In this document: piece by piece, positions 9,452-35,194 of the stretch
Numbering within the stretch: position 1 is the first letter of the stretch
Layout of the letters: each line of letters starts with the position of its first letter
Origin: an uncultured Chloroflexia bacterium
GTDB lineage: Bacteria > Chloroflexota > Anaerolineae > Anaerolineales > Anaerolineaceae
Direction: 5' to 3'
Length of the DNA stretch: 64,000 nucleotides
Assembly: GCA_963843535.1 (NCBI GenBank)
Contig: CAWJKU010000003.1
Coordinates: 192,156 to 256,155, forward strand
Notes under the pieces: generated by a model
What the model saw: only the letters and a program-made list of their open reading frames with translations
Databases searched by the model: none
What the model was told of the DNA's origin: nothing
Made by a program: the position numbers and the translations under genes

Positions 9452-9463
9452 TTACCTGCTCTC

Positions 9464-9664: not shown

Positions 9665-10190
9665 TCTTCCTCCGCTCCCAGAAAGGCATCAAGTCATGAG
9701 CAGACTTGCCGCGATGGGCGGCTTCCACTTCGGGGGACTTGAGCTGGTCCAGGGCTTCAAAGGTAGCCTTGACCACATTCAGGGTATTCGCGCTGCCCAA
9801 TGATTTGGTTAAGATATCGCGTACCCCAGCAGATTCGAGCACTGCGCGCACACCACCGGCGGCGATGACGCCCGTGCCGGGGGATGCTGGTTTAAGCAGA
9901 ACCACAGCGCCAGAAACACGGCCGATCACCTCGTGGGGAATGGTGGTGCCCATGGTGAACACCTGGCGCATATTTTTATGAGCGCGTTCTGTAGCCTTGC
10001 GCATCGCATCTGGCACGGCATTGGCTTTGCCTATACCCATGCCCACATTGCCGCGATTATCGCCAGCCACTACCGTTACCCGGAATTGGAAACGGCGGCC
10101 GCCCTTCACAACCTTGGCTACTCTGGCAATTTCGATCACACGTTCGTCGTATGCTGTTTCTACAGCTGCTTGATAATTCATCATTTCCAT
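9657..10190 (-). CDS. rpsE: 30S ribosomal protein S5 (uS5)
   Basis: [35 protein letters not shown]5 signature. Confidence 0.97.
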
Positions 10191-10229
10191 TGTTTCAGGC
10201 CCTCATTCCTGCATAGTTTGGCGGGGTCG

Positions 10230-10595
10230 CTAGAATTCCAGGCCAGCTTTGCGGGCGCCATCGGCCAGCGCTTTGACCCGGCCGATATAACGAAAACCGC
10301 CGCGGTCAAAAACGACTTGCTTGATGCCTTTATCTATTGCCCGCTTACCGACTAATTCACCGACTAGCCGCGCCTGCTCCGTCTTTTTCAGGCCCTTCAC
10401 TTTTTCACGGAGTTCATGATCGACAGTTGAGGCTGAAACGAGAGTCAGACCGGCCTCATCATCGATCACCTGGGCGTAAATTTCCGCCAGGCTGCGAAAT
10501 ACGCTGATTCGTGGGCGATCCAGCGTGCCAGTGACATTCTTGCGCACACGAACATGCCGCTTAAGGCGAGATTCAGTACGAGTTTTATTCGTCAT
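10230..10595 (-). CDS. rplR: 50S ribosomal protein L18 (uL18)
   Basis: ...[20 protein letters not shown]...[28 protein letters not shown]. Confidence 0.96.
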
Positions 10596-10603
10596 ACCAC
10601 TAC

Positions 10604-11158
10604 CTACCCCTTACCCTTGCCCTTACCGGCTTTACCAGCCTTGCGGCGAACTCTTTCTTCGTGGAAACGAATACCCTTGCCCTTGTAGGGTTCTGGGGGA
10701 CGAATCTGACGAAGATCTGCAGCCACCTGGCCGACTTGTTCCTTATCAAAGCCATTGACTTTGATCTGGCGAGCGCGGGTATCAACATCAAACGAGATAC
10801 CAGCCGGCGGCTCTACGGTGACAGGATGAGAATATCCCACGTACAGCACCAGATTGGCGCCGTTCATCTCTGGGCGGTATCCTACACCTTCAACATCAAG
10901 CAAACGGGTGAAGCCGGTGCTAACACCAGTCACCATGTTGTTGATCAAAGCTCGGGTCGTTCCATGCAGGGCGCGCACGCTGGGGGCCTCTGAACTGCGG
11001 GTGACTATCACCTGTCCATTTTCCAGGGCAATACCAACCACTGGAGTGAACTCTTTCTTCAATTCACCCTTCGGACCTTTTACGTGGACTTCCAGACCAT
11101 TTAATTTGACCTGGACGCCCGCCGGAACGGAAATCGGTAATCGACCAATCCGAGACAC
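10604..11158 (-). CDS. rplF: 50S ribosomal protein L6 (uL6) with Lys/Gly-rich C-terminal tail
   Basis: ORF 10604-11296 trimmed to GTG 11158-11156, preceded by GGAGG, giving (M)[16 protein letters not shown]..., the canonical L6 start. The tail reads [14 protein letters not shown]. Confidence 0.93.
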
Positions 11159-11181
11159 GTTCCTACCTCCTTTTCCCGGGT

Positions 11182-11595
11182 CTACCAGACCTTGCAGAGG
11201 ATCTCGCCGCCCACATTCAGCTGGCGAGCCCGCTGCCCGGTCATGATGCCCTTGGGGGTTGACAGGATGGCAACGCCCATGCCCGACAGTACCCACGGGA
11301 TATCCTGCTTGTGAGTGTAAACCCGCCGGCCTGGCCGGCTGACACGCACAAGACCGGTGATGACGGGGCGGCGCTCGCGGCGTTCACCCACGTACTTCAA
11401 CTTTACACGCAGTATCCGCTCGAATGTTTTCTCGCCATCGGCCACTTCGAAGCTCTCGATGAAACCCTCTTCCCGCAGAATGCGAGCAATTTCGGCTTTG
11501 AGAGATGAAGATGGCATAGCCACCAGGGGTTGGCCAATGGACACAGCATTGCGGATGCGCGTCAACATATCTGAAATAGGATCATTCACGCTCAT
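11182..11595 (-). CDS. rpsH: 30S ribosomal protein S8 (uS8)
   Basis: MSVNDPISDMLTRIRNA... canonical S8 N-terminus. Confidence 0.97.
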   Translation of the reverse strand: MSVNDPISDMLTRIRNAVSIGQPLVAMPSSSLKAEIARILREEGFIESFEVADGEKTFERILRVKLKYVGERRERRPVITGLVRVSRPGRRVYTHKQDIPWVLSGMGVAILSTPKGIMTGQRARQLNVGGEILCKVW

Positions 11596-11612
11596 TCTTA
11601 ACCTCCACCAGG

Positions 11613-11795
11613 CTACCAGGATGACTTGGTCACACCGGGAATTTGCCCTTGCAGAGCTAACTCACGGAAGCAAATGCGGCAGAGACCAAAGCGGCGCATA
11701 AAGCCGCGCGGACGACCGCACAACCGGCAGCGATTGCGGACCTGGATGGCATATTTTCTCCGCTGTTCACGAAAAGTCATGCACTTCTTCGCCAT
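11613..11795 (-). CDS. rpsN: 30S ribosomal protein S14 type Z (Zn-ribbon, 60 aa)
   Basis: [15 protein letters not shown]...[28 protein letters not shown] with CxxC...CxxC. Confidence 0.95.
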
Positions 11796-11797
11796 AA

Positions 11798-12340
11798 TTA
11801 ACCCTTCCTGAATGGCATGCCGAGCATTTGCAGCATGGCAGCCGCCTGATCATCTGATGGAGCATTCGTCACGATCGTAATTTCCAAACCGCGGATTTTG
11901 TCGATCTTATCGTATTCGATTTCCGGAAAGATCAACTGTTCCCGCAAGCCCAGGGTGTAATTACCACGCCCATCAAAGGCATCCGGTGAGACCCCGCGGA
12001 AGTCACGCACCCGCGGCAGCACAATATTCATCAACCGGTCGAGGAAGGACCACATACGCTCGCCGCGCAGCGTGACCTTGGCGCCAATCGCGCGCCCTTC
12101 GCGCAACTTGAAGTTCGCGATGGACTTGCGGGCCTTGGTTACTACCGGTTTCTGACCACTGATCGCGGTCATATCGGCTACTGCGGCTTCGAGCGCCTTG
12201 GGGTTATCCATTGCTTCTCCCAGGCCAATGTTGACCACCACCTTCTTCGGAGAGGGAACCTGCATAATATTCTGCAGATCCAATTCCTTAAATAAGGCAG
12301 GGACAATTTCTTTTTGATATCGTTCTTTCAACCTGTTCAT
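11798..12340 (-). CDS. rplE: 50S ribosomal protein L5 (uL5)
   Basis: ORF trimmed to ATG 12340-12338 ([16 protein letters not shown]...). Contains VVNIGLGEA and LGMPF motifs. Confidence 0.95.
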
Positions 12341-21966: not shown

Positions 21967-22434
21967 CTACAGCCGGTAGTGAGAGAAAGCGCGGTTGGCT
22001 TCAGCCATTTTATGAGTCTCTTCGCGTTTCCGGACCGAAGTGCCCTGGTTATTGTAGGCATCCAGCAGTTCGCCCGACAGCTTCTCGGCAAATGATTTGC
22101 CGGCGCGGGCTTTGGAAGCAGTGATAATCCAGCGCATTGCCAGAGTCATCCGGCGCGATGAAGGAACTTCCATGGGAACCTGGTAAGTTGCGCCACCCAC
22201 ACGGCGGGGGCGAACTTCCATCACGGGACCCACATTCCTGAGGGCCTGTTCAAAAACGTCGATGGGGTTCTTCCCGGTCTTTTCTGCCATGATGTCAAAC
22301 GCATCGTAGATAGACGAAGTGGCAACACTTTTCTTGCCGCGCCGCATGATGCGATTTATAAATGAGGTTACGACGGTGCTTTGATAGCGCACGTCCGGGG
22401 TAATTTCCCGTTCTTCAGGTTTCGACCTTCGCAT
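21967..22434 (-). CDS. rpsG: 30S ribosomal protein S7 (uS7)
   Basis: 155 aa, ...GKKSVA..I...A......PRRVGGATYQVP.EV...R. Confidence 0.96.
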   Translation of the reverse strand: MRRSKPEEREITPDVRYQSTVVTSFINRIMRRGKKSVATSSIYDAFDIMAEKTGKNPIDVFEQALRNVGPVMEVRPRRVGGATYQVPMEVPSSRRMTLAMRWIITASKARAGKSFAEKLSGELLDAYNNQGTSVRKREETHKMAEANRAFSHYRL

Positions 22435-22462
22435 GCATTTACTCCATCAAATGGATCTGAAA

Positions 22463-22882
22463 TTAGGACTTGGGACGCTTTGAGCCGTATTTTGAGCGGC
22501 TCTGAGAGCGTTTGGCAACACCGGTCGTATCCAGCGTACCGCGAACAATGTGGTAGCGGACACCGGGCAGATCCTTAACACGACCTCCGCGCACCAGCAC
22601 CACCGAGTGTTCCTGCAGTGCGTGACCTTCACCTGGAATATAGGCAGTCACTTCAATACCGTTGGTCAGGCGCACGCGGGCGATCTTGCGCAGCGCAGAA
22701 TTCGGCTTCTTGGGGGTCATCGTACGGACCACGGTGCACACGCCGCGTTTTTGCGGCGCGCCGGTATCCTGGCGAATACGGCGCTGTTTGTACGAATTGA
22801 GCGTGTACAGCAGCGCAGGCGCATTGCTCTTGATCTTTTTCGATTGGCGACCTTTTCGGACCAATTGGTTAATTGTGGGCAC
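22463..22882 (-). CDS. rpsL: 30S ribosomal protein S12 (uS12)
   Basis: [12 protein letters not shown]...[33 protein letters not shown]-like core. Confidence 0.97.
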
Positions 22883-23021
22883 TTTCTTTTGCCTCCGTCA
22901 GATATCCTGGGCGTTCTACGCCGCATTTATCAATTCTTTTGCCAAACTCTATTGAGTTTTGCATGATTTCTTATGCAATGGGCACGATATGCCTACCCCT
23001 AGCGGGGCACAACGAGGAAAG

Positions 23022-23050
23022 ATTGTATCACACGCCTATCTTACCGTCAA
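23022..23050 (-). promoter_or_regulatory. Predicted sigma-70-type promoter of the str/S10/spc array
   Basis: Minus strand reads TTGACG (23050-23045), a 17-nt spacer, then TACAAT (23027-23022), about 140 nt upstream of rpsL. Confidence 0.55.
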
Positions 23051-23145
23051 GCTGTCTGACACTCTTCCTTTCAAATTTCAATCTTCTGCCGTCGAAATAC
23101 ACCAGCATAATTTCTTCTACAAATTAGTTGACCGCAGCGCCTTTG

Positions 23146-23207
23146 ACAAAAATTCACCGCCGCCAGGAATTAAGGTCCAGAGATGCAACCACGCCGGCGG
23201 CGGTGAA
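23146..23207 (-). terminator. Predicted intrinsic terminator after rpoB
   Basis: Exact 12-bp arms ttcaccgccgcc (23153-23164) and ggcggcggtgaa (23196-23207). On the minus strand they are followed by TTTTTG, 25 nt after the rpoB stop. Confidence 0.6.
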
Positions 23208-23231
23208 GCGATGACGGTGAATTGTCGAGGA

Positions 23232-26200
23232 TCAGGATAGGCGGTCCAGTTCCTCGCCCAGGCCTAACAGGCCGGTCTCAAGTTTGGGTGGGCGCACTCG
23301 CTCTTCATCTTTGCCAAAGCGAATCACCTCGCCGCTGTCCATGACGGCCTCGACTGCCAGGCCCAGACTTTGCAGTTCTTTTACCAGGACCCGGAAGGAT
23401 GCCGGTAGACTGGGCTCTTCGATCGATTCGCCCTTTACAATGGCTTCGTAGGTATTTACCCGGCCTTGCACATCGTCCGATTTCACGGTGAGCATTTCTT
23501 GCAAGGTATAAGCCGCGCCGTATGCTTCCAGGGCCCACACTTCCATCTCTCCAAACCGCTGCCCGCCAAACTGTGCTTTGCCGCCCAACGGCTGCTGGGT
23601 CACCAGGCTGTACGGTCCGGTAGACCGGGCATGCACCTTGTCTTCCACCAGATGGTGAAGTTTGAGCATGGTCATTACCCCGACGGTAACTGGTTGATCA
23701 TACGGCTGACCGCTCTTGCCATCTCGTAAGACCTGCTTGCCCAAAATTGGCATGGGGTTGCCGGTCATCTCGGTCTGTTTTTCAGCCCGAGCATGGATTT
23801 CTTTGTCAGTCATGCCTTCTACATCGACTTCATGCCGCTTTTTGAGCCACATACGCAGCGCGGTGTGAATGGCATAATTATCGTGCTGCTCCATCTCGGC
23901 GCGTGTGAGAGATGGGTTATTGAATACCTGGGCAGGGTCAAATCCACCTTCGATCAACCATTCGCGCAGAACTGATTCACGGGAATATGCCGGATCGGAT
24001 GAAAGCTTGTAAATATCATAGCCCTTCTCACCCAACCATTGTTCCATATACAACATGCGGACTTCATCATCATCCTTGATGGTGGTCGGATCGTATTCCT
24101 GTTCTTTTAGCCAGTTCCAGGCATTCTGGGCTATATCCATCCAGGCCAGATCGGTCAGGTAAGCCCGGCCGAGTTCGGCTTCAATTTCTTCCTCGGTGGC
24201 GCCATCAAAAACTGGGGTCAAAGCTCTGAAACCCAGATGGCGCGCGGCCCAACCCAGATGTGTCTCCAGAACCTGGCCTATATTCATACGACCGGGTACG
24301 CCCAACGGGTTAAGGATGATATCAACTGGGGTGCCATCCTCAAGGAACGGCATATCTTCTTCCGCCACCACGCGAGAAACCACACCCTTATTGCCATGCC
24401 GCCCGGCCATTTTGTCGCCTGCGGTGATCTTGCGGCGCTGTGCGACGGAAACGCGCACCATCATGTCCACGCCTGCAGCCAGGTCGGTATTATCTTCTCG
24501 AGTAAAGACTTTGACGTCTACCACCTTGCCCCGTTCACCGTGCGGCATGCGCAGCGAGGTGTCTTTTACGTCCCTGGATTTCTCGCCAAAGATGGCGCGC
24601 AGCAGGCGTTCTTCGGGCGTCAATTCTTTCTCACCTTTGGGAGTAATCTTCCCAACCAAAATGTCGTTCGGGCCGACTTCCGCGCCGATGCGAATAATAC
24701 CGTGTTCGTCCAGATCCTTGATCGCGTCTTCACCAACGTTGGGTATGTCGCGGGTAATTTCTTCAGGACCCAGCTTGGTGTCACGAGCTTCCACTTCATA
24801 TTTTTCAATATGAACCGAAGTAAATTTATCGTCCTGGACTAGCTTTTCGGAGATCAGGATGGCGTCTTCGAAGTTGCCGCCTTCCCATGAAACGAAGGCT
24901 ACCACCACGTTCTGGCCCAAAGCCAGTTTACCTTGCACCGTGGAAGATGAATCGGCCAGGATATCCTGGCGATGGACGCGCTGTCCCTTAATCACTGCGG
25001 GGCGCTGGTCGATGCACGTGCTCTGGTTTGAGCGCTGGTATTTGCGCAGGTGATAGGTGCGCACGGCTCCACTGTTATTGCGTACGGCAACCGCATTGCC
25101 GGTGACCGAGACAACCTGCCCGTCTTCTTCGGCGATCATCACCTGACCCGAATCAATCGCGGCATAGGCTTCCATGCCGGTCGAAATGAGCGGGATATCG
25201 GGTTGGATCAGCGGAACAGCCTGAGCCATCATGTTTGAGCCCATCAAGGCCCGGTTGGCATCATCATGCTCCAGGAAGGGGATCAAAGAAGCGCTGACGC
25301 CCACTACCTGGTGCGGCGCCACATCCATATAATTGACGCTGTCAGGGCCTGAGATCGTAAAATCTGAATGGTGCCGGCAGGAAATTCGTTCAAAGGCAAA
25401 CTCGTTGAGATCGGTGAGTTCGGAATTGGCCTGGGCGATAACAAACTTATCCTCTGCATCCGCCGAAAGATATTCAACTTCATTGGATACAAACGGGGCC
25501 ACGAAGATCGAGCTCTTATTCAATTTAACAATCGCCGGCAGCATTTCTTTCGTTACCCGCTCACCCTGTCTGGCGATGACTTCGCCAGTTTCAGAATCGG
25601 TCAGTGTTTCACGCAGCAGCCGGGTTTCCAGGCGGGGATCATCAGAAGATAATACCTTTACCACTCGCCGGTATGGGGTTTCAATGAAACCATATTCATT
25701 CACCCGGGCAAAACTTGCCAGGCGGCCGATCAAACCAATGTTCGGACCTTCTGGCGTTTCGATCGGGCAAATACGGCCATAATGAGAATGGTGCACGTCA
25801 CGCACATCGAACCCGGCCCGCTCGCGGCGCAATCCGCCAGGACCAAGAGCCGAAAGGGTGCGCTTGTGGCGCAGCTCAGCCAGCGGGTTCGTCTGGTCCA
25901 TGAACTGTGAAAGCTGGCTGGAGCCAAAGAATTCACGCAGCGCGGCTACTACCGGGCGAATGTTTACCAGGCTGACCGGAGAAATGGTATCCTGGTCGCG
26001 GATCGACATGCGCTCTTTGATCACCCGCTCCATGCGGCGCAAACCAATGCGCAGCTTGTTCTGGATAAGCTCGCCGACCGTCTTTACCCGGCGGTTGCCG
26101 AGGTGGTCGATATCATCTTTATCTTCGACTTCATTATTAATCTGGATCATGCGCTTGATCAGAAACACGATATCCCAGCGGCTGACCGTGCGGTGTGAAA

Positions 26201-27150
26201 CCGGGATCTTATCGGTCAAATCCAGTTTCTGGTTCAGCTTATACCGCCCGACCCGTTCCAAATCATAATGGCGCTGATCGAACAGCTGCTCCTCAAGGAA
26301 CTGCTTGGCATTTTCCAGCGTAGCCGGATCGCCTGGGCGCATGCGCTTGAAGAACTCCATCAATGCCACCTGGGCAATCGTGTAATTGCCGGTCAAATCC
26401 CAGGCAGGTTCCTGGCGCAAGGTGGAGGGGATGAATAAACGATCGGGATTGTTATCAACATCCTGGAAGAGGGCGATCAATTCTTCATCACTGCCCTCTT
26501 TAATCGGCGAATCGCTCCGACCGTCATCAATTGCTGCCAGGGCGCGTAAGAAATATCGTAATCGGCACCGTGCGCTTGCGGTTGAATTTGAGAATCAGGT
26601 AATCATTCTTACGGGTTTCAAATTCCATCCAGGCGCCGCGGTCTGGGATCAACTTGGCCATCGCCAGACGACGACCAGTCGCACGGTCCACCGGGGCTTC
26701 AAAATAGACACCCGGGGAACGAATCAGCTGCGATACGACCACCCGTTCCGTACCATTAATAATGAAAGTGCCTTTCTCGGTCATTTCCGGGAAATCGCCC
26801 AGGAAAATGTCCTGGCGAATGGGCTCCGGAACTTCAGATCCGGCTAACAATACCGACACATACATTGGGCTGGCATAGGTCAAATCACGTTCGACGCATT
26901 CATCAATGGAATGCTTGGGTTCACCAAACCAGTATTTCAGCCCCCACTGTTGTGATTCGGGTGTCTTGCTGGGGAAGAAAAGCTTCATACCTTTGTTGTA
27001 TGATTCTATGGGGGAAATTTCGTTGAGCAGATCCCCCAGCCCCTCCGATTTAAGCCGCCGGAATGAATCCAGCTGGACCTCAATCAGATCAGGCATATTG
27101 AAAATTACAGGAATTCGAGCGTAGGTCTTGGTCGGAAGAACTGAAGCCAT
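23232..27150 (-). CDS. rpoB: DNA-directed RNA polymerase subunit beta, interrupted by a 1-nt frameshift near 26550
   Basis: N-terminal 207-aa ORF (27150-26527, ...[13 protein letters not shown] then TRPGSN*) and 1082-aa ORF (to 23232) are consecutive parts of beta. The second frame already reads [28 protein letters not shown] upstream of its listed start. Confidence 0.9.
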
Positions 27151-27286: not shown

Positions 27287-27892
27287 TTAATCTTTTCGAA
27301 CCCATTGTCCATTTTCCAACTGAAATCCTGTGAGTGCGATGACTTTCGCGGTCACATTTCCATCCGAGAAAATATCCAAAATCCCCCAGCTGGGATTTTT
27401 TCCGCGCTTACTGCCAAATCCTGCCGAACCCGGATTGAATAACAACTGGCCGTTATCCCAGATGATTTCCGGATGATGGGTATGCCCAAACACGATCACC
27501 TTTGCCCCCTGCCCTGCTCGCTTTAACAGCGAACGGTAGCGTTTGAACCGGTAGCCTTGAAATATATAAAACCATTTATCCACGAAATAGTTCAGCCATG
27601 AACCATGCCCGTGCATCAAAGCTACACTTACGCCGGCCAGATCGAGACGATTGACGCCGCGACCTTTCCGGCGCAAAGGCCAATCCCGGTTGCCGAGCGC
27701 TATTTCTACCGGGGCAATTTTCGCCAGCGTTTCGAGCACTGCCAGCGTTGAAACATCCCCCGCGTGTAAAATGCAATCTGGTCGCGCGGCTTGTAGAGCC
27801 GGGATAAGACCCGGATGAATCTCGTTTGCCCGATCGGGAACATGCGTGTCTGCGACAATGCCTGCGCGATAAATGGGGAGGGGTGTTTCTAT
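27287..27892 (-). CDS. YfcE-like metallophosphoesterase (start codon uncertain, possibly ATA)
   Basis: Track ORF starts at GTG 27739, but the same frame stays open upstream and encodes motif I: IETPLPIYRAGIVADTHVPDRA. Later motifs are GNRD, MHGHG and GHTHHPE. No ATG/GTG/TTG lies upstream of motif I. AAGGAG sits 8 nt before ATA 27892-27890. Confidence 0.7.
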   Translation of the reverse strand: METPLPIYRAGIVADTHVPDRANEIHPGLIPALQAARPDCILHAGDVSTLAVLETLAKIAPVEIALGNRDWPLRRKGRGVNRLDLAGVSVALMHGHGSWLNYFVDKWFYIFQGYRFKRYRSLLKRAGQGAKVIVFGHTHHPEIIWDNGQLLFNPGSAGFGSKRGKNPSWGILDIFSDGNVTAKVIALTGFQLENGQWVRKD

Positions 27893-28506
27893 GCGAAAAG
27901 CTCCTTCAATTCGTCACGAACCTGCTGCGAACTGCGAAAATGGATCGCATGCATGCCGACCGCGCGCGCGCCTTCGACATTTTCAATAAAATCATCGACA
28001 AAAACCCCGGATTGCGGCTCAATTCCCAGCCGGTCGAGCATCAAACGATAAATCTGGGGATTGGGCTTTGCCATCCCAACTTCAGCGGAATAAATGGTTA
28101 CATCAAACAGGTCATAAAAATGCGGGAAGCGTCTCGCCAGGCTGGCCCTGGTTTCGGGATAAGCATTGGAAAGCAGGCCGACTCGATATCTCGGTTTTAA
28201 CTGCATGGTGAAGGTATACAAATCTTCATCGAACTTATCGCAGGAGTAAAAGGTATCGATAAATTCTGCCATCTTTTCAGCCGGAATATTGAGCTTTTTT
28301 TGTACATATTTCCAGGAATCGGCTTCCGTAGCCTGCCCGATCGAGGCTTGTACGGCAACCTCGTTCCCAAAAAACAGGTTCTCCAGATCCAGATAAGACA
28401 TGCCGTACGGCGCAGCTAACCTTCCGCGGATCGATGGGTCCATATTGCGGACCAGAACTCCCCCCATATCCCAGATTAATGCCCGGTAATGGTTCGGTAT
28501 GATCAT
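27889..28506 (-). CDS. HAD-superfamily hydrolase
   Basis: 205 aa. IWDMGGVLV (motif I), GLLSNA, VFVDDFIENVEGA (motif IV). Confidence 0.8.
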   Translation of the reverse strand: MIIPNHYRALIWDMGGVLVRNMDPSIRGRLAAPYGMSYLDLENLFFGNEVAVQASIGQATEADSWKYVQKKLNIPAEKMAEFIDTFYSCDKFDEDLYTFTMQLKPRYRVGLLSNAYPETRASLARRFPHFYDLFDVTIYSAEVGMAKPNPQIYRLMLDRLGIEPQSGVFVDDFIENVEGARAVGMHAIHFRSSQQVRDELKELFA

Positions 28507-28604: not shown

Positions 28605-28841
28605 GAGGCTGTCTCAAAACTCCACCCCCACCCCGACCCGCCACCTCACACCCCTTCGGGTGGCCGAAGCGGCGGGGGCGGGAGAAAGAGGAAGTGGGGA
28701 GTTTTGGCCGCATTTTGCGGCCAAAACTCCCCAAACCTCTGAATTTCACCCCCTTCCCGCCCTCGCGCTGCGCGCTGAAGGACAGCTGGGAAGGGGGTTA
28801 GGGGGATGGGTCTTAGAAAAATCTTCTTTTAGGACAGCCCC
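28605..28841. repeat. Structured GC-rich intergenic element with imperfect inverted termini and several internal hairpins
   Basis: Termini gaggctgtctcaaaac (28605-28620) and cttttaggacagcccc (28826-28841) match 12/16 as inverted repeats. There is a perfect 16-bp hairpin ggggagttttggccgc/gcggccaaaactcccc (28696-28732) and a 10-bp hairpin cccccttccc/gggaaggggg (28749-28797) followed by ttagggggatgggt. Confidence 0.8.
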
Positions 28842-28852
28842 AGATAGCGATT

Positions 28853-29866
28853 CTACTTCATCTCTTTACGCCAGTTGGACGAACGGCGCACCGGGCGATA
28901 ACCCATGCTTTCATACAGGCGCAATGCCCCCGATAAGTTCTGCGTATCAACTCCCAGGCAGGCTTCATTCATCCCCTTTTCTTTTAATAGGGATAAACTC
29001 CGGGCGATAAGCGCTTTCGCGAGACCTTTTCCACGCCACGGTCGCCTGACGCAGATATTCTCGGTCCATCCGCGCTTGCGCTGGTATTCAACATTCTCCA
29101 GTTCATCGATAAACGACAAAACCATCCCTGCCACTTCATTCCCGTCCCAGGCCACCTGCCACAATTCGGGCTGCTGGTTGCGGCGATCGATCCAGGCTTC
29201 ATAAGGTTCTCCATCCGGATCGTACCCCCAATGATCGCGGAAAGCCTCGTCGCTGGCCTGCCAGATCTGGTGATACTGTTCAGGTTTCGCCGGACGGATA
29301 TCAACGCCAGGTGGAAGTGCTAGAACAGGTATATTTTCAAGATCTGGCCGCACCATGATATTGAAATGGCGTATGGGTTGGTAGCCTTCGGCCGTCAACA
29401 ATGCCGCAGCACCTATCTCGCTGTCGCTGCAGAATGCTTCAAAGAAACGAGGGCCATCCTGCGGGTGTTTCGCGGCGGCCTGGAGCAGATGTTCCTGGTT
29501 CCAATGCAGCATCGCCCTGCCTATGCCCTTGCGCCGCCAATTGGGATGCAAATAGCCAAAGCTGACGTAGATCCGTTCCTGGCTCGATTCTACCCGGTAC
29601 CAGAATGTACGGCTGTAAGCGATCATTTCACCATACATTTCGGCAATTAAGACATCCTGGTACGGGTCGCAATTCACCAGGTGGCTGTAAGAGCGCCGGA
29701 TATCCTCTACAGTATCCGCTCTTTCAATTTTATCGATGGTCTTGCTGGCATGGATGATCCCGACCATGCCGGAAAAATCATCGTCACCGGAAAATAATCG
29801 AAACCGCAGCCCAGGAACGGCAGGGGCCTCGCTCAATACAATTTCCTTTTGCAAAATAGTATCCAT
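28853..29866 (-). CDS. Tandem-domain GNAT N-acetyltransferase (MshD-like architecture)
   Basis: 337 aa, two acetyltransferase halves (HPNWRRKGIGRAML; VRRPWRGKGLAKALI...CLGVDTQNLSGALRLYESMGY). Paralog of the upstream gene. Confidence 0.8.
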   Translation of the reverse strand: MDTILQKEIVLSEAPAVPGLRFRLFSGDDDFSGMVGIIHASKTIDKIERADTVEDIRRSYSHLVNCDPYQDVLIAEMYGEMIAYSRTFWYRVESSQERIYVSFGYLHPNWRRKGIGRAMLHWNQEHLLQAAAKHPQDGPRFFEAFCSDSEIGAAALLTAEGYQPIRHFNIMVRPDLENIPVLALPPGVDIRPAKPEQYHQIWQASDEAFRDHWGYDPDGEPYEAWIDRRNQQPELWQVAWDGNEVAGMVLSFIDELENVEYQRKRGWTENICVRRPWRGKGLAKALIARSLSLLKEKGMNEACLGVDTQNLSGALRLYESMGYRPVRRSSNWRKEMK

Positions 29867-29874
29867 TTTTTCTC

Positions 29875-30918
29875 CTACGGATGCAGTGCGCTTGTAGTGA
29901 TGTCAACACCTTCGCGCAGCACTTTCTGAAATGAATGCAGGTTCCTGGCAACATGCATGCCGGCTTTTTCATACAGGGCTAATGCCCCAGTCAGGTTGGT
30001 GGCATCCACGCCCAGTCCGGCCCGCTTCTTCCCACGCCGGTAAAATTCGGCAAATGCTTGCTGCAGCAAGGCCAAACCGAGCCCATTTTTCCGGTGTTTT
30101 CGCAGCACGCCCAGCATATTTACCCAACCCATCTGCGGGTCCTCCGTTCGCTCAGACATACACAGGCAACCGCCGGCGATTTCACCATCTTTGACAGCGA
30201 TATACCACAGCGAAGGATCCATGTTCTTAATATTTTCAGCCCAATGCAGCCAGCGTTCGAGGTAATTTTCGAATGGCTCGTCCACAAAACCCCAATGATC
30301 CTTGAATGATTCCCATAAAACGCGGATCATTTCCCGGCGTTCATCCTCCCCATGGTAAGGGCGAATCTCGTAGCCGACCGGAATCTCAGGAAGGGCGGGC
30401 TCCTGGTCCAAATCGATGTGCATATGATAGAAATTGCGCACCAGCTTGAAACCGTGATCCTGTATGAAAGCTATGTTCTTTTTCATGCGCGAATCTTCGC
30501 CCTGCTGCAAGACGACCAAAGTTCCTGGTGGGGAAACCGTCAAAGCGCTCTGGGCACGCTGTTCTACCCATGCCAGCAGGTAGCTGTCAATTCCCAAATC
30601 TTCATAATCGGGATGAACCAAAATTTCGATATTGAAGCGGACATGCGGCTCGACAATATCCCAGAATTCACCATACCCGACCATTTTCTGCTGTTCGTTA
30701 AAAACAACGCAGGAATCAGTGTCGAGGTTAAAGCCGGGTGTCTGCCAGAATACCAGGTCATCCTCCAAGTTCTCGGTATTAACACCCAAATACTTCTGGG
30801 TAAACGTGTTGAACAATTCCACCGCCTGGGCTGCATCATCCAGGCACATTGACCGGCTGGTGAAATTTGGGGGTAAACGGTATGTAGTGATCGTCTCGAT
30901 TTCCATAGTGTTATCCAT
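29875..30918 (-). CDS. Tandem-domain GNAT N-acetyltransferase (MshD-like architecture)
   Basis: 347 aa. VLRKHRKNGLGLALLQQAF...GLGVDATNLTGALALYEKAGM. The start overlaps the permease stop by 8 nt. Confidence 0.8.
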   Translation of the reverse strand: MDNTMEIETITTYRLPPNFTSRSMCLDDAAQAVELFNTFTQKYLGVNTENLEDDLVFWQTPGFNLDTDSCVVFNEQQKMVGYGEFWDIVEPHVRFNIEILVHPDYEDLGIDSYLLAWVEQRAQSALTVSPPGTLVVLQQGEDSRMKKNIAFIQDHGFKLVRNFYHMHIDLDQEPALPEIPVGYEIRPYHGEDERREMIRVLWESFKDHWGFVDEPFENYLERWLHWAENIKNMDPSLWYIAVKDGEIAGGCLCMSERTEDPQMGWVNMLGVLRKHRKNGLGLALLQQAFAEFYRRGKKRAGLGVDATNLTGALALYEKAGMHVARNLHSFQKVLREGVDITTSALHP

Positions 30919-31741
30919 TTCGATGTAATTTTCCGGTACGTTTTGCGTACACTTCTGCCTGCTTGAAGACCCACATGCCCAAAGGCAGCAGCACGGCGCC
31001 CATGATCAATACCGGCCAGATAAATCCCCACAGGTTCAGGGTAGGCACACCTTCTAATATTGCCTGGCGCACGCCAGTCAGCACATAGGTGGCAGGACTG
31101 AACACGGAAATTTTTTGGAGCGCTGCGGGCAGCACATCGACCGGGTAATAGACGCCTGACACCAGCAGCATCAAGGCGATAAACACGTGGGTCATCTGCG
31201 AACCGCGCTCCGGAAACAGCAAAGGCAGGGTGGATGCCATGATCCCAACCCCAATGAAGGAAAAGCTTCCGGCCAGCAAGATCAGCACCCCTCCCAACAG
31301 GTTGGATTTGCTCAAATCCAGATCAAAAACCAGGGTAGTGATGATCAAGATCACCCCGGTAAACAGGATGCTGTAGGCCACGGCGAACATCGTTTGCCCG
31401 GCCATGTGAGTGACCCGGCGAATTGGCGCCATTAATGTGTATTCAATCGTTCCTTCCCAGCGCTCGATGTTGATCAGATCGGTGATCCAATAAAAGATCT
31501 GGGATAAGAAACGCCACACCAATGTGCCGATCAACAGGTATAAAACCATATAGCGGGTATCCAGGGTGCCAGCCCCACCCCCGATGCGTTCCATGCCCAG
31601 GCCAATAAAACTGACCGCCAGGCTGTCGGCAGCGGAATAGACCAGCCAGACCAGCTCCCACGACCAGTAGCGTTTAATTAGGTTGAAATTGCGCTCCACA
31701 AATGCAAAAGAAGCGCGCATTTGATGCGTCATCGTAGTCAT
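30911..31741 (-). CDS. ABC-2 type transporter permease
   Basis: 276 aa, about 6 predicted TM helices, typical ABC-2 exporter membrane-subunit layout. Confidence 0.8.
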   Translation of the reverse strand: MTTMTHQMRASFAFVERNFNLIKRYWSWELVWLVYSAADSLAVSFIGLGMERIGGGAGTLDTRYMVLYLLIGTLVWRFLSQIFYWITDLINIERWEGTIEYTLMAPIRRVTHMAGQTMFAVAYSILFTGVILIITTLVFDLDLSKSNLLGGVLILLAGSFSFIGVGIMASTLPLLFPERGSQMTHVFIALMLLVSGVYYPVDVLPAALQKISVFSPATYVLTGVRQAILEGVPTLNLWGFIWPVLIMGAVLLPLGMWVFKQAEVYAKRTGKLHRNG

Positions 31742-31744
31742 TTT

Positions 31745-32293
31745 CTAACCTGTATTTTTTGCTTCCCACTCCGATTTTAGTATGCCCATATACACGACAT
31801 CCCAGCGTTTGCCATTGCGCATCATCGATTTCCGCGTGCGGCCTTCTTCAACGAAACCGCATTTCAAATATGATTTTTGCGCCCGCAGATTGTATTCAAA
31901 TACATCCAGGTTGACCCGGTTCAGGTTTAATTCCTGAAAGGCAAAACGCAAGGCGATCTGCATCGCTTCGGTGCCGTATCCCTTGCCCCAGAACTCCCGC
32001 TCACCGAGGCCGATGCCCACCCAGGCATTCCGGGCCGCCCAATTGAAACCCGAAAGATCTACCAGCCCAATCGGCCGGTCATCTGTCATGGTGCGGATGA
32101 TGAAGTAATAGATATTCTTTTCCTTCTCGATCCACTCCTTGACCTGTTTGGGCGTCCACATGTAGGCCGCATCGTCGTTCAGCAAACGGGAGTATTCACT
32201 ATCCTGATTCCATTTCGCCAGAAATTCGGCGTCCTTATCCGGATCTACGATCGTCAGGCGGACCAGTTTTCCATCAAAAATGGAGCTGTTCAT
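31745..32293 (-). CDS. RimJ/RimL-like GNAT N-acetyltransferase
   Basis: 182 aa. ...VGIGLGEREFWGKGYGTEAMQIALRFAFQELNLNRVNLDVFEYNLRAQKSYLKCGF. Confidence 0.8.
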   Translation of the reverse strand: MNSSIFDGKLVRLTIVDPDKDAEFLAKWNQDSEYSRLLNDDAAYMWTPKQVKEWIEKEKNIYYFIIRTMTDDRPIGLVDLSGFNWAARNAWVGIGLGEREFWGKGYGTEAMQIALRFAFQELNLNRVNLDVFEYNLRAQKSYLKCGFVEEGRTRKSMMRNGKRWDVVYMGILKSEWEAKNTG

Positions 32294-32871
32294 GCCACCG
32301 CCTCCTCAACCGCTTCTGGTTTCCATTCCGTGTGAAGCATGCCAAAATGGAGGGCATCATAGTACCGGCCGTTACGATACAGGGCCTGGCGCCGGCGAAC
32401 TTCCATTAAGAAACCGGCATTTTCCAGCAGCGCGACCAGGTCTTTTTGATATTCTGCCAGGACAGTCTCTATCCGGTAGAGGTTGAGCTCACGGAAACCA
32501 TATTGGAGCGCCAGATCCAACGCTTCTCGACCAAAACGCTGCAAGATGGATGGGTCGGCAATCGCCAGGCGCAGCCATGCGCTGGCATGCATCCAATGGA
32601 CAAACGGAAAGCGGATGAACCCGGCTAACTGGTTGCCTTCCTTGAGGCGGATGGCGAAGTAATACTGGTTACCGCGTTCTTCGGCGTGTTTCTGGTGTTC
32701 TTCGTGGATTTTCTTGATTTCCACCGGACCCAGGGGGCGCGCAGGCATCTCCATCAAGTCCATGGCATAATCCAGATCGTAAGTCCAGGCCGTTTCGATC
32801 TTTCCGTCCTCTTCCGGGTTGATAAACGTCAATCGCAGATTTGGACTTTCAAACAACTGTTTGTGCATCAT
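32290..32871 (-). CDS. RimJ/RimL-like GNAT N-acetyltransferase
   Basis: 193 aa paralog of the next gene. ...FGREALDLALQYGFRELNLYRIETVLAEYQKDLVALLENAGF. ATGA overlaps at both ends. Confidence 0.75.
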   Translation of the reverse strand: MMHKQLFESPNLRLTFINPEEDGKIETAWTYDLDYAMDLMEMPARPLGPVEIKKIHEEHQKHAEERGNQYYFAIRLKEGNQLAGFIRFPFVHWMHASAWLRLAIADPSILQRFGREALDLALQYGFRELNLYRIETVLAEYQKDLVALLENAGFLMEVRRRQALYRNGRYYDALHFGMLHTEWKPEAVEEAVA

Positions 32872-33821
32872 ACGCCCTCCTCTTCCTTTACCAACTTCTT
32901 GCCTGTCAGGTCCAAGAAGACATCTTCTAAAGTGGTTTCTTTACCGTCTTTGATGGGCAGTCGGCTTTTTAAGACTGCCGGGGTATCCATTGCCATAATC
33001 TTGCCGCTGTTCATGATCGCCACCCGGTCGCATAACTGGTCGGCTTCCATCATGTCATGGGTGGTCAGCAAAATTGTGGTACCGTGTTTTTCACGAAGTT
33101 CCTTCACCACTTCCTGTACCTCTTTCTTTGAGCGCGGATCCAAACCGGTGGTCGGCTCATCCAGCAGGAGCAGCTTTGGCTTGGAAAGTAAAGCCCTGGC
33201 AATTGCCACTTTTTGCTGCATCCCGCGCGACATCTCTTCCATTGGATTGGTGATCGAGCGTTTCTCCAGGCCCAATCGGGTCAGGATCTCGAACACTTGA
33301 ATGTAGGTTTCTTTGCCGTCCATCCCATATAGCCGCGCTCCATACATCAAATTTTCTAACGGTGAAAGTTTTTTGAAGAATGAAGCTTCCACCGAAACCC
33401 GGTTGATCCGCTGCTGAACCTGCACCGGCTGGCGCACGACATCGTATCCAAACACGCTGATCGTGCCGCTGTCCGGCAGGAGCAAGGTTGAAATCAAACG
33501 GATCAATGTTGATTTGCCGCCGCCGTTTGGCCCCAAAACACCGAAGATTTCACCTTCTGTGATCTCAAAAGACACGTGATCCACGGCGATGGTAAAGTGC
33601 TGATTTCCGTTCACAGATTTTGTCTGATCTGCTTTCAGGTCGTGCTCATTACCATTGGTTTTACCGTTGCGGTTACCATCTCCGTTTCCATTACCGTGTC
33701 CGTTGCCATTTAAGTGATCCGGCTGAATGGCGCCTTTTCCGCGCAGCAAACGCTTCCATAACGGTTCTCCTGGCTTGCCAAACTTCTTATATGCATCCCG
33801 TACGATCACTGCGTTGCCCAT
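32868..33821 (-). CDS. ABC transporter ATP-binding protein with Asn/Gly-rich N-terminal insertion
   Basis: Walker A GPNGGGKST, signature MSRGMQQKVAIA, Walker B LLLLDEPT. Start moved from GTG 33839 to ATG 33821, which has AAGGAGG 5 nt upstream. Confidence 0.9.
   Translation of the reverse strand: MGNAVIVRDAYKKFGKPGEPLWKRLLRGKGAIQPDHLNGNGHGNGNGDGNRNGKTNGNEHDLKADQTKSVNGNQHFTIAVDHVSFEITEGEIFGVLGPNGGGKSTLIRLISTLLLPDSGTISVFGYDVVRQPVQVQQRINRVSVEASFFKKLSPLENLMYGARLYGMDGKETYIQVFEILTRLGLEKRSITNPMEEMSRGMQQKVAIARALLSKPKLLLLDEPTTGLDPRSKKEVQEVVKELREKHGTTILLTTHDMMEADQLCDRVAIMNSGKIMAMDTPAVLKSRLPIKDGKETTLEDVFLDLTGKKLVKEEEGV
33648..33710 (-). repeat. Imperfect hexanucleotide repeat encoding NGNGHGNGNGDGNRNGKTNGN
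   Basis: Plus strand att acc att ggt ttt acc gtt gcg gtt acc atc tcc gtt tcc att acc gtg tcc gtt gcc att. Lies between the first two beta strands of the ABC domain. Confidence 0.8.
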
Positions 33822-33840
33822 TTTTGCCTCCTTGCTCACA

Positions 33841-33882
33841 TAAAAAAACCGCCCACCCCAAGATTCGGCCCGGGTTGGACGG
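33841..33882 (-). terminator. Intrinsic terminator/attenuator 2, immediately before the ABC ATPase RBS
   Basis: Minus strand ccgtccaaccc-12 nt-ggggtgggcgg followed by TTTTTTT. The stem has one G-U pair and one mismatch. It ends about 10 nt before AAGGAGG. Confidence 0.55.
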
Positions 33883-33894
33883 CTATGCCATCTA

Positions 33895-33928
33895 TAAAAA
33901 AACCACGGGCACTGGAGTGTGCCCGTGG
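33895..33928 (-). terminator. Intrinsic terminator/attenuator 1
   Basis: Perfect 10-bp stem ccacgggcac (33903-33912) / gtgcccgtgg (33919-33928) with a 6-nt loop. A T7 run follows on the minus strand. Confidence 0.7.
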
Positions 33929-33948
33929 TATCGCGTTAATTTTGCGTA

Positions 33949-34050
33949 TTACCTGGAAGTAGGCGCACTCCGATAAGGAACCTGTCCAGCCCCACCCGCA
34001 TCGACGGTAGAGCAGAACACCTTGATGTAATTGGAGAAATTCTTTACCAT
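33949..34050 (-). CDS. 33-codon leader ORF (MVKNFSNYIKVFCSTVDAGGAGQVPYRSAPTSR)
   Basis: Hand-translated codon by codon. ATG 34050-34048 is preceded by AAGGA at 7-nt spacing. TAA at 33951-33949 lies 18 nt before terminator 1. Below the ORF-track size cutoff. Confidence 0.4.
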   Translation of the reverse strand: MVKNFSNYIKVFCSTVDAGGAGQVPYRSAPTSR

Positions 34051-34085
34051 TCGTACATCCTTAAGAACATTGATATTACCGGTTA

Positions 34086-34114
34086 ACTTTACATGATCCT
34101 GGCGCACTTGTCAA
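34086..34114 (-). promoter_or_regulatory. Predicted promoter of the leader/ABC-GNAT operon
   Basis: Minus strand reads TTGACA (34114-34109), a 17-nt spacer, then TAAAGT (34091-34086). Confidence 0.55.
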
Positions 34115-34165: not shown

Positions 34166-35194
34166 TCAATGCTTGACGAACGGCAGCCAGATGGCGCGGT
34201 CTAGCGGCCCATGCACCATGCCTGAATCTGCAGAGATCATCAACCCAGAGCTATCCACCGCCTCAAAATTACTTCCCAACACACCGCCGATCGTACGCAG
34301 GATGTCGTTATCCCATCGCTCATCCGGCACCCCGCTGATGTACCAGTTTGAGCCGTTATCGGCCAGGATCATCCCGTATGTCTTCAGCGCCTCCAGGATC
34401 ACGCGCGCCTGGCTGGAATAGCGGCTGGTATCAAACGATGCCTTAAGGCGGAAGCGCATTCCCATGGGCGGCAGGGAAAGGGATGTATTTGATGAAGCAT
34501 AATGCCGCGCAGGCCAGACGTACGCTCGTTGAGTCTGGCTGACCGTGAAGCGCAAGGCATGGTTGATCTGCCCGGATGCGGCTTCCTCGTAGCGCACCAA
34601 TCCTGGGAGGATCGGCAGGCCAGCTGCGTCCGCGGAAGTCCACCCGGCGGGGCGCAGCGCATTAGATTTCAGATCATATATGGCACCCGAACCTGCCTGC
34701 CAACCGGCCCCATCTTTCGGGGGGTAGGCCGAATACAGCTCATACAGCACACAGGCATCCGTATCTACTAATAAAATATGCCGGTCGCCATCACTTTGCG
34801 GCCCGCCTTCGATCAAAGGATTGGCAGGCAGCGGATATGGCCCGAGATCGCTCTCATCATCATAATCAAATGTTACTTGGGATTTCGCCTGGCTGGATGT
34901 TACCAGCGTGTAGGGAATCCCGATCGGACCTCCGTCCCACAGCCCGGAGCCAAAATCGGCATGCAAACCTGCATTTGCGCCGATCGATTGGATATACTCG
35001 TTGGAACGCGGGTGGACTGGAAGATTGGTCACCGGTTGATTCCAGATATTGTTTGCAGGCAAAATATTGCAGCCCGCCAGGTTGGATTGAGCCGCGGAAA
35101 AAACCTGCCCGATCGGATTGACCAGGCTCCACACAGTCAGGCCCATCAAGACCAGGATACAGGTCCAACGCGCACTCAAGTTTGACCATTTCAT
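34166..35194 (-). CDS. Secreted conserved hypothetical protein
   Basis: 342 aa. N-terminal signal-like MKWSNLSARWTCILVLMGLTVWSLV. No family recognised with confidence. Confidence 0.6.
   Translation of the reverse strand: MKWSNLSARWTCILVLMGLTVWSLVNPIGQVFSAAQSNLAGCNILPANNIWNQPVTNLPVHPRSNEYIQSIGANAGLHADFGSGLWDGGPIGIPYTLVTSSQAKSQVTFDYDDESDLGPYPLPANPLIEGGPQSDGDRHILLVDTDACVLYELYSAYPPKDGAGWQAGSGAIYDLKSNALRPAGWTSADAAGLPILPGLVRYEEAASGQINHALRFTVSQTQRAYVWPARHYASSNTSLSLPPMGMRFRLKASFDTSRYSSQARVILEALKTYGMILADNGSNWYISGVPDERWDNDILRTIGGVLGSNFEAVDSSGLMISADSGMVHGPLDRAIWLPFVKH

Follow-up and report, generated by a model that had tools for sequence, protein, structure and literature searches.

Here we describe a conserved leader sequence of the Anaerolineae (Chloroflexota) that precedes acetyltransferase and exporter genes and that, judged from its sequence, is probably a ribosome-dependent transcription attenuator, without an Rfam match. 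Our reference copy lies in a 64,000-nt stretch of contig CAWJKU010000003.1 from an Anaerolineae bacterium (the whole stretch is called the window below), where it is followed by six tightly packed minus-strand genes (33821–28853) for an ABC transporter ATPase, a pair of GNAT proteins (GNAT1 and GNAT2), an ABC-2 permease and two tandem-GNAT proteins. We read leader and operon together as a chromosomal, vertically inherited acetylate-and-export response to translation stress that is wired in cis, and put the probability of this reading at roughly 55%.

Anatomy and conservation of the leader

The first-pass annotation of this DNA had placed a promoter, a 33-codon open reading frame (ORF) and two intrinsic terminators ahead of the operon. 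All four elements were confirmed, and the leader in the window comprises the following:

34086–34114, minus strand: sigma-70-type promoter, TTGACA-17 nt-TAAAGT, with 10 of 12 consensus matches
33949–34050, minus strand: leader ORF of 33 codons, MVKNFSNYIKVFCSTVDAGGAGQVPYRSAPTSR, with the Shine–Dalgarno (SD) sequence AAGGA at 34062–34058
33983–34019, minus strand: hairpin P1 within the leader ORF, −18.6 kcal/mol, z −2.4 (window)
33960–33972, minus strand: invariant 13-nt motif CGGAGUGCGCCUA, the putative antiterminator 5' strand, overlapping the last leader-ORF codons
33895–33929, minus strand (hairpin 33929–33902): terminator 1 (T1), 11-bp stem ACCACGGGCAC/GUGCCCGUGGU, loop ACUCCA, U7, −22.1 kcal/mol
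33842–33882, minus strand (hairpin 33882–33849): terminator 2 (T2), stem CCGUCCAACCC.../...GGGGUGGGCGG, U7, −19.6 kcal/mol

About 20 nt separate the U-run of terminator 2 from the ATPase start codon (ATG 33821, which is backed by ortholog alignment). This leaves no room for a separate promoter, so that transcription of the operon has to run through both terminators.

With a GNAT1-family alignment as probe we collected 39 genome loci and 52 metagenome loci, onto which the window proteins were mapped by tblastn, and a leader pattern search yielded 38 loci (33 distinct). From 26 leader sequences we then built a covariance model, which recovered all earlier copies at 63–86 bits and found new ones, at 43–54 bits, upstream of tandem-GNAT pairs without GNAT1 and GNAT2 (loci L002 and L006). 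The copy in L009 precedes a heterodimeric type-I ABC exporter and then a tandem GNAT, and that in L104 (80.9 bits) precedes the order GNAT-GNAT-tandem GNAT-isochorismatase-MFS-unknown-nucleoside hydrolase. The total stands at 38 distinct leader sequences from Anaerolineae genomes and metagenomes, every one upstream of its genes and co-oriented with them. The model found a single copy in the window (33982–33894, minus strand), and nowhere did it hit the wrong strand or an unrelated place. Not every such locus has the leader: L101, a locus with tandem GNATs and a type-I ABC pair in a high-GC genome, gave no leader match.

An Rfam scan of the window at gathering score returned no match, and a literature search for an Anaerolineae attenuator found nothing. 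The trpB ncRNA motif gave the best sub-threshold Rfam match (window 33837–33929, minus strand; 26.8 bits, cut-off 59; E 0.15), which spans exactly the two tandem terminators and probably reflects a generic double-hairpin resemblance.

The order of elements in the leader consensus is promoter, SD, ORF, P1, motif CGGAGUGCGCCUG, stop codon, terminator 1 and terminator 2. All 37 complete leaders have an SD sequence and an ORF of 29–34 codons whose stop lies 17–24 nt after the start of the motif. TTGACA and a −10-like hexamer stand at the equivalent position in L001, L010, L011, L012, L017, L019, L009, L006 and L002. Terminator 1 has arms CCACGG/CCGUGG and a loop with CUCC, and terminator 2 mostly has the same arms. 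Differing sequences fold into hairpin P1 at the same place across 33 leaders (mean z −2.1); RNAalifold on the ORF region gave no P1 consensus because MAFFT leaves the arms unaligned, and the support for P1 is per sequence only. Lying about 10 nt 5' of the motif, P1 is by its position possibly an RNA polymerase pause or synchronising hairpin. A suspected hairpin P2 between the stop codon and terminator 1 was rejected as not significant (mean z −0.3).

The motif nucleotides read R-S-A-P in 28 leaders and S-E-C-A-Y in nine; between the window and L019 the change of frame results from a 5-nt length difference, seen by eye, just 5' of the motif. The motif codons GCG and CCU show zero synonymous variation, with flanking proteins only 37–45% identical. 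Two reading frames and the lack of synonymous variation together argue for a constraint on the RNA. They also bear on a reading of the locus as a cluster for a ribosomally synthesized and post-translationally modified peptide (RiPP), in which the GNATs would acetylate a 33-residue precursor and the ABC-2 pump would export it, the role of the terminators being only to set the precursor-to-enzyme ratio. A short SD-bearing ORF, then terminators, before modifying enzymes and an exporter is the arrangement of many bacteriocin loci, and the centre of the peptide contains Gly-Gly. However, the conserved 3' part occurs in two frames across lineages (RSAPxxR versus SECAY) with its nucleotides invariant, and so is not conserved as a peptide; the same stretch is complementary to the terminator loop, and no protease, cyclase or other RiPP enzyme is present. 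We therefore rejected the RiPP reading, which we regard as extremely improbable. The peptide substrate that the first-pass annotation had entertained is likewise unlikely as far as the leader ORF is concerned, because the reading frame differs between lineages.

Closer to the start of the ORF, leader codons 10–12 hold a conserved basic-hydrophobic-basic/aromatic triplet, which is mostly RIR among leaders of type II and KVF, RMF or RIF among those of type I, and which we take, as a lead only, to resemble the '+x+' motifs of drug-dependent arrest. In L006 (~7830–7975), tandem short repeats (CGACTACC[C/T]GACTA-like units) fill the space between terminator 2 and the first tandem GNAT.

Alternative pairings of motif and terminators

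Terminator 1 offers the motif a pairing partner in its 5' arm and loop. Pairs were counted on an alignment of 33 joined motif/terminator 1 segments, with the three most distant leaders left out because a single bulged base displaces their upper helix. The 12-bp helix is paired in 88.2% of cells, against 29–68% in slid registers, five of its pairs show double changes, and its covariation score was reached by 0 of 500 shuffles. The duplex amounts to −19.0 kcal/mol in the window and to −18.4 kcal/mol on average (z ~−3) across leaders, and distant leaders preserve it via changed bases (CGCAG with CUGCG; −19 to −26 kcal/mol). The terminator 1 helix is itself paired in 84.6% of cells, with 40 double-change cells (32 distinct sequences). 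The leader thus combines a short ORF with an SD sequence, intrinsic terminators before the first gene and an antiterminator on the 5' arm of terminator 1 that is mutually exclusive with that terminator. The leader-peptide attenuation proposed in the first-pass annotation gains from this: the upstream ORF and both terminators are conserved, and the antiterminator is supported by covariation.

A second alternative pairing joins the terminators to each other. Terminator 2 was detected in 28 of the 33 leaders, and in 26 of these a duplex of about −14 to −25 kcal/mol (z ~−3 to −6) can form between the 3' arm of terminator 1 and the 5' arm of terminator 2. The 26 take in the window clade, despite its differing terminator 2 sequence (−15.1 kcal/mol, z −2.7 in the window), and the duplex is also present in the added leaders L002, L006, L009 and L104.

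The operon and its acetyltransferases

The six ORFs of the operon were confirmed in coordinates, strand and domains by an ORF check and Pfam:

32868–33821, minus strand: ABC transporter ATPase, DrrA-like (PF00005, 111 bits)
32290–32871, minus strand: GNAT1, RimJ/RimL/SpeG-like fold (PF13302, 34 bits, weak)
31745–32293, minus strand: GNAT2, RimJ/RimL/SpeG/AAC(6')-like N-acetyltransferase (PF13302, 79.6 bits)
30911–31741, minus strand: ABC-2 type permease (PF01061 ABC2_membrane, 54.5 bits; PF12698, 43.4 bits)
29875–30918 (start may be 30906), minus strand: tandem-GNAT protein 1, two Acetyltransf_1 stretches (Pfam)
28853–29866, minus strand: tandem-GNAT protein 2, two Acetyltransf_1 stretches (Pfam)
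28695–28733, minus strand: strong terminator at the operon end, 18-bp stem

Simple scans of the region showed no excess over shuffles; that the arrangement is more than chance follows from the recurrence of gene order and leader in dozens of diverged loci. The tight packing described earlier holds for the 4-nt overlaps (ATPase/GNAT1 and GNAT1/GNAT2) and for the gaps of at most 8 nt (3 nt between GNAT2 and the permease, 8 nt between the two tandem GNATs). The 8-bp overlap of permease and tandem GNAT 1 exists only if the latter starts at 30918; a start at 30906, which is that of the 343-aa database protein P0001 for tandem GNAT 1, gives a 4-nt gap. An exact-sequence look-up of the window tandem GNAT and the identical database protein returned no record. 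The hairpin at 28695–28733, between the last tandem GNAT and a HAD gene, is unusually long and perfect, with a 3-nt loop and a weak U-tract.

GNAT1 and GNAT2 are 27% identical. The GNAT1 family is narrow (56 clusters at 90% identity, almost all 191–193 aa), and throughout it motif A, Q/RxxGxG/A, is replaced by I-L-Q-R-F-G, and the positions of the SpeG Asn and Tyr are occupied by Q and L, i.e. the alpha4 Asn and the catalytic Tyr are missing. GNAT2, when aligned to AAC(6'), YdaF and SpeG structures, retains motif A (FWGKGYGTEA) as well as the alpha4 Asn and the Tyr. Judged by these residues, GNAT1 has degenerate motifs for acetyl-CoA and catalysis and probably serves as a non-catalytic partner, and GNAT2 would probably be the catalytic member of a heterodimer with it. 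The four acetyltransferases of the first-pass annotation therefore stand as regards their domains, GNAT domains being present in all, and fall short as regards catalysis, which was overstated for a GNAT1 without motif A, alpha4 Asn or catalytic Tyr.

All four GNATs score far below the cut-offs of the NCBIfam equivalogs for RimJ, RimI, SpeG, PseH, AAC and MshD, and hence are not ordinary RimJ, RimI, SpeG, MshD or AAC orthologues; the worry that they would resolve as ordinary RimJ, RimI or MshD orthologues was not borne out, no curated threshold being reached. RimI models gave at most 40.7 bits against 86.4, and the best curated AAC(6') match, 42.8 bits against 400, covers the C-terminal 74 residues only. 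A structure labelled AAC(6') (PDB 6ERD) matches GNAT2 over its full length (E 3e-15), which indicates relatedness only; literature searched for the PDB codes 6ERD and 7Q3A yielded no hits. GNAT2 relatives from cyanobacteria and Bacillus stand as single genes outside this context. A detoxification of aminoacyl-nucleotides of the MccE/RimL type, suggested by PF13302 membership and by nucleoside hydrolase and HAD neighbours in some loci, is only a lead.

The GNAT pair also raises the possibility of polyamine homeostasis, in which a SpeG-like GNAT2/GNAT1 would act together with an exporter of acetylated or free polyamine, and the leader would sense polyamine-induced stalling, as proposed for mdtU-mdtJI and speFL. 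In Bacillus subtilis an efflux pump and a spermidine acetyltransferase are encoded together in the blt-bltD operon. When the GNAT1 family profile is compared with PDB sequences, SpeG enzymes come out best (E 4e-15), GNAT2 matches SpeG as well (E 6e-12), the top NCBIfam match of GNAT1 is spermidine N1-acetyltransferase, and a spermidine exporter controlled by an upstream ORF (uORF) offers a precedent (PMC7815308). However, the scores against the SpeG model PRK15130 are 45.9 bits for GNAT2, which has motif A and the Tyr, and 29.7 bits for GNAT1, which has neither, against a cut-off of 218; AAC(6') and YdaF match GNAT2 at least as well; and the C terminus of the leader peptide is not conserved as a peptide, unlike that of MdtU. 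The tandem GNATs, which also occur alone behind the leader, carry no polyamine link, and their characterised relative is antibiotic-induced. We consider polyamine homeostasis unlikely.

The tandem GNATs themselves (347 and 337 aa) consist of GNAT domains only and are paralogs with 28% identity; both carry the C-terminal motif LGVDxxNLxGALxLYE noted in the first-pass annotation. Tandem GNAT 2 is not found in two close relatives, L001 and L011; L012 and L013 have it. An AlphaFold2 model of tandem GNAT 1 (pLDDT 94.9) matched, in Foldseek, 3TT2 from Sphaerobacter and MAB_4324c from Mycobacterium abscessus (7Q3A) with TM scores of 0.78–0.85 (0.84 for MAB_4324c, 0.78/0.84 for 3TT2), followed by MshD (0.65–0.69), glucosamine N-acetyltransferase and VipF. 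MAB_4324c, the closest characterised structural relative (phmmer E 1.8e-16), belongs to the direct targets of WhiB7; ribosome-targeting drugs induce it, its acetylation of amikacin is weak, and it partially complements a whiB7 mutant (PMC10727445). The tandem GNATs are accordingly nearer to MAB_4324c and 3TT2 than to MshD, to which their motif had first been likened; MshD model TIGR03448 gave 48.5 and 37.6 bits against 163.1. Nor are they Eis-like, as had also been considered: no Eis structure occurs within the top 50 fold matches, and the GNAT-GNAT-SCP2 architecture of three domains and ~400 aa is not present.

Interchangeable exporters behind a common leader

A gene-neighbourhood survey, as the first-pass annotation had advised, showed that the order of ATPase, GNAT pair and permease recurs. 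With the tandem GNAT included it occurs in at least 17 distinct loci and extends, in Anaerolineae metagenome-assembled genomes, down to 37% GNAT1 identity. The syntenic locus L001, with a tandem-GNAT homolog 71% identical, reads ATPase-GNAT-GNAT-permease-tandem GNAT-HAD-rpoB and has one tandem GNAT only. By tblastn the permease is the gene after GNAT2 in most ATPase-carrying loci. Other loci have no ABC genes and read GNAT1-GNAT2-tandem GNAT-HAD or GNAT1-GNAT2-HAD. In L051 (GNAT1 70% identical) the place of the ATPase, between terminator 2 and GNAT1, is taken by about 180 nt that contain no more than a short ORF, from which we infer a loss of the pump.

The GNAT pair stands behind 35 of the 38 leaders; in the other three, tandem GNATs are found alone (L002, L006) or with a type-I ABC pair (L009). 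The exporters behind the 38 are an ABC-2 ATPase (20), a module MFS transporter (seven), a second MFS transporter with isochorismatase (three) and the type-I ABC pair of L009 (one); the MFS transporter (PF07690, E 1e-48 to 1e-53) follows GNAT2 or the permease in several loci. Across these loci, leader and GNAT pair make up the conserved core, and the ABC-2 pump is an accessory. Since one exporter family replaces another behind the same sensor, the cargo would act on an exportable small molecule, and the link between acetyltransferases and efflux that was proposed from the window emerges strengthened by three unrelated exporter types interchanging behind the same leader.

The window exporter combines ABC_tran and ABC2_membrane domains, with no gene for a substrate-binding protein in the operon, and lies below the NCBIfam cut-offs for DrrAB orthology (TIGR01188 drrA 256.8 bits against 312; drrB 37 against 223). 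No known anti-phage defence system was matched in PADLOC, which returned generic ATPase similarity for the ABC ATPase only, and none for the GNATs, the permease, the HAD protein or a 150-aa accessory protein. Between the first two strands of the ATPase (~33600–33700, residues ~42–80) there is an Asn/Gly-rich low-complexity insertion, NGNGHGNGNGDGNRNGKTNGNEH..., which ranges from 0 to ~60 residues among orthologs. A 149–160-aa protein lies between the leader and the first module gene in L015 (667–1149), L022 (7529–7978), L034, L060, L084 and L085; it occurs in two separate lineages with 33–35% identity between them and has no Pfam or PADLOC match. In one lineage, represented by L014, L104 (~8100–11900) and L013, the operon is joined by genes for an isochorismatase-family hydrolase, a second MFS transporter, a 211–265-aa unknown protein and an inosine-uridine nucleoside hydrolase. 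Taken with the nucleotidase-like HAD gene nearby, this extension hints that the substrate may be of a nucleoside type.

Genomic setting

Beyond the operon-end terminator lies a gene whose membership of the module is uncertain:

27889–28506, minus strand: HAD-IA phosphatase (PF00702), a separate transcription unit

A HAD phosphatase adjoins the module in 15 of 38 architectures and in L022 and L034 sits between GNAT2 and the module MFS gene. It also belongs to a conserved HAD-phosphoesterase-rpoB synteny, and for this reason we count it only as a possible member.

The HAD neighbour counts towards a further alternative, an amino-acid supply attenuator, in which the leader would sense a shortage of particular charged tRNAs through its Ala/Gly-rich centre, and an N-acetylated metabolite (an N-acetyl amino acid or amino sugar) would be made and exported, with the HAD protein in the pathway. 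Classical leader-peptide attenuators sense charged tRNA, and most leaders encode a peptide with an Ala/Gly-rich centre; HAD is a recurrent neighbour, isochorismatase and nucleoside hydrolase genes occur in some operons, and glucosamine N-acetyltransferase is among the fold neighbours of the tandem GNATs. The whiB7 uORF, moreover, is Ala-enriched and senses alanine starvation (PMC10274678). However, the leaders have no single-codon run, and the Ala/Gly codons fall where P1 has its two GC-rich arms, so that RNA structure can explain them. The GNATs are the sole conserved biosynthetic genes of the module, and the HAD gene is also part of the rpoB synteny and in the window stands behind a strong terminator. 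This makes an amino-acid supply attenuator very unlikely.

The arrangement module-HAD-phosphoesterase-rpoB is kept in several diverged Anaerolineae. Such placement at the side of rpoB, with ordinary GC, points to an old chromosomal trait and not a recently acquired cassette. It has a bearing on a reading in which a RimJ/RimL-type pair acetylates the N termini of ribosomal proteins under feedback from translation efficiency, the transporters being unrelated passengers: both in the window and in diverged genomes the module has rpoB and the str/S10 ribosomal operons as neighbours, its inheritance looks vertical, its GC is ordinary, and GNAT1 and GNAT2 both belong to PF13302, the RimJ/RimL family. 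However, the scores are 37.5 bits (GNAT2) and 22.2 bits (GNAT1) against 190 for RimJ (PRK10809) and 19.9 against 86 for RimI, the GNAT pair is enclosed, with 4-nt overlaps, by the ABC-2 genes, and three exporter families behind the same leader are hard to explain. Acetylation of ribosomal proteins is thus decidedly improbable as the role of the module.

In the window rpoB is directly followed by rpsL-rpsG-fusA-tuf (21967–27150; in L001, 12567–21032), with rpoC not adjacent and no rplL upstream. The window rpoB (23232–27150, minus strand) is frameshifted at 26548–26552, residues 1–201 lying in frame −2 and 200–1305 in frame −3, as judged against the intact 1305-aa ortholog of L001. This is most likely an indel error of the assembly, and other single-base errors in the window are therefore possible. 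On the other side of the module, 34166–35194 (minus strand) encodes a 342-aa protein with an N-terminal signal-like hydrophobic segment and no Pfam or NCBIfam family, which lies directly upstream of the leader in close relatives (74–77%) and in L055 (56%).

Proposed mechanism

We propose that in the off state RNA polymerase would start at the promoter and transcribe the 33-codon leader ORF, and that a ribosome smoothly reaching the stop codon would cover the motif CGGAGUGCGCCUA. Terminator 1 and then terminator 2 could fold, and transcription would stop about 20 nt before the first structural gene. In the on state, a ribosome delayed within the first ~22 codons by a ribosome-targeting compound, a shortage of charged tRNA or a general slowdown would leave the motif unoccupied. 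The free motif would capture the emerging 5' arm and loop of terminator 1, and the 3' arm released from terminator 1 would capture the 5' arm of terminator 2, so that both terminators would be disabled and the operon transcribed. The products, a pair of GNAT2 with degenerate GNAT1, two tandem-GNAT enzymes and an ABC-2 exporter, may act jointly on an amine-bearing small molecule harmful to translation, which they would N-acetylate and expel, the same compound being both acetylated and exported. By the design of the sensor, the signal would be disturbed translation.

Several observations weigh against an acetylate-and-export response to translation stress governed by such a switch. When equilibrium folding was simulated with a ribosome footprint masked at every codon (12 leaders), terminator 1 dominated almost everywhere. 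The ribosome-position geometry fits, with a stop codon 17–24 nt after the motif start; equilibrium simulation gave no switch, and the decision would consequently have to be kinetic, as it is in the trp operon. Because the motif hardly varies, the covariation derives from few events, and the slid register −2 matches the covariation score, but has only 68% of cells paired. Energies and common arm sequences are the whole basis of the proposed terminator relay. The ABC-2 pump is missing from 18 of the 38 leaders, some of which have no exporter nearby, and export is thus not obligatory. The GNAT scores below every curated cut-off indicate no specific substrate family. Finally, the position of the module beside rpoB and ribosomal-protein operons in many genomes, at ordinary GC, is compatible with a housekeeping role.

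A more ambitious claim is that the leader founds a new class of ribosome-dependent attenuator RNA, in which a leader peptide, an invariant 13-nt antiterminator strand and relay-coupled terminators, both disabled by one pairing, would wire inducible GNATs and interchangeable pumps in cis across the Anaerolineae. This would make the system a cis-encoded counterpart of the WhiB7 resistome, with a heterodimeric GNAT that has a dedicated pseudo-enzyme subunit. We advance this tentatively, at a shade under even odds. Anaerolineae are abundant in soils, sediments and wastewater sludge, are almost genetically intractable, and very little is known of their gene regulation; a conserved, sequence-defined attenuator would give the Chloroflexota a concrete, testable regulatory element. 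The leader would also mark a set of genes responsive to disturbed translation (the GNAT pair, the tandem GNATs and pumps of the ABC-2, MFS and type-I ABC kinds), a set that makes up, in this environmental reservoir, a candidate repertoire of intrinsic, inducible resistance or detoxification. If it is real, the two-terminator relay would afford a tight off-state without loss of inducibility, and the GNAT1/GNAT2 pair would be an added example of a split GNAT with a pseudo-enzyme subunit.

Comparison with known systems

The system would work like bmrB-bmrCD, the WhiB7 regulon, toiL and mdtU-mdtJI, and is a member of no described family. Its proposed antiterminator logic is that of trp-type attenuators, in which the leader ORF likewise overlaps the antiterminator 5' strand and a ribosome at the stop codon masks that strand, as it would here; the hairpin inside the ORF could be the equivalent of the pause hairpin. 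In contrast to trp-type attenuators, the leader has no regulatory codon run, no 1:2 anti-antiterminator was detected in it, it has two serial terminators with a proposed relay, and its predicted default without translation is on, not off.

In bmrB-bmrCD of Bacillus subtilis a multidrug ABC exporter is under ribosome-mediated transcriptional attenuation, with a short leader ORF, alternative stem-loops and an intrinsic terminator upstream of the exporter genes, as here, and antibiotics against protein synthesis induce the system (PMC4191407). The type-I ABC pair behind the L009 leader has the same domain make-up as BmrCD. There is, however, no sequence relation, and our leaders occur in Chloroflexota, with an ABC-2-type pump in the window and mainly acetyltransferases as cargo. 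The two terminators lie 3' of the ORF here and have mutually complementary arms, whereas the bmrB terminator lies inside the ORF.

The topAI-yjhQ operon of E. coli includes a GNAT, YjhQ. The toiL uORF upstream of that operon senses several classes of ribosome-targeting antibiotics and resembles our leader in being a multipurpose uORF that acts through ribosome position and alternative RNA pairing (PMC12121999). It differs in that ribosome-binding-site occlusion and Rho-dependent termination take the place of intrinsic terminators, and its cargo is a toxin-antitoxin system.

The B. subtilis blt-bltD genes couple an efflux pump with a GNAT on the same substrate. Control of such export by premature termination is seen in mdtU-mdtJI, where a uORF governs termination upstream of an amine exporter (PMC7815308). 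MdtU, however, acts with Rho and has a conserved peptide C terminus, and our evidence is not polyamine-specific.

The tandem GNATs share with MshD, MAB_4324c and 3TT2 a ~340-aa two-GNAT fold whose C-terminal domain has a canonical motif A. Mycothiol is not known in Chloroflexota, the equivalog threshold of MshD was not reached, and the substrate of MAB_4324c is itself uncertain.

A functional parallel in output is the WhiB7 regulon of mycobacteria. There, whiB7 is controlled by uORF-dependent antitermination (PMC10274678), and WhiB7 activates eis, tap, erm, hflX, MAB_4324c and others (PMC10274678, PMC10727445), so that, as in our proposal, stalled translation of a uORF goes in and GNATs and efflux pumps come out. 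In contrast to the regulon, the Anaerolineae system has no transcription factor and places an attenuator in cis at each operon, its leader sequences are unrelated, and no erm, hflX or ABC-F genes were seen. The WhiB7 target MAB_4324c is nonetheless of the same fold family as the tandem GNATs (TM 0.84), and the parallel, this fold included, suggests that the link from translation stalling to acetyltransferases and efflux is a solution that has recurred across phyla.

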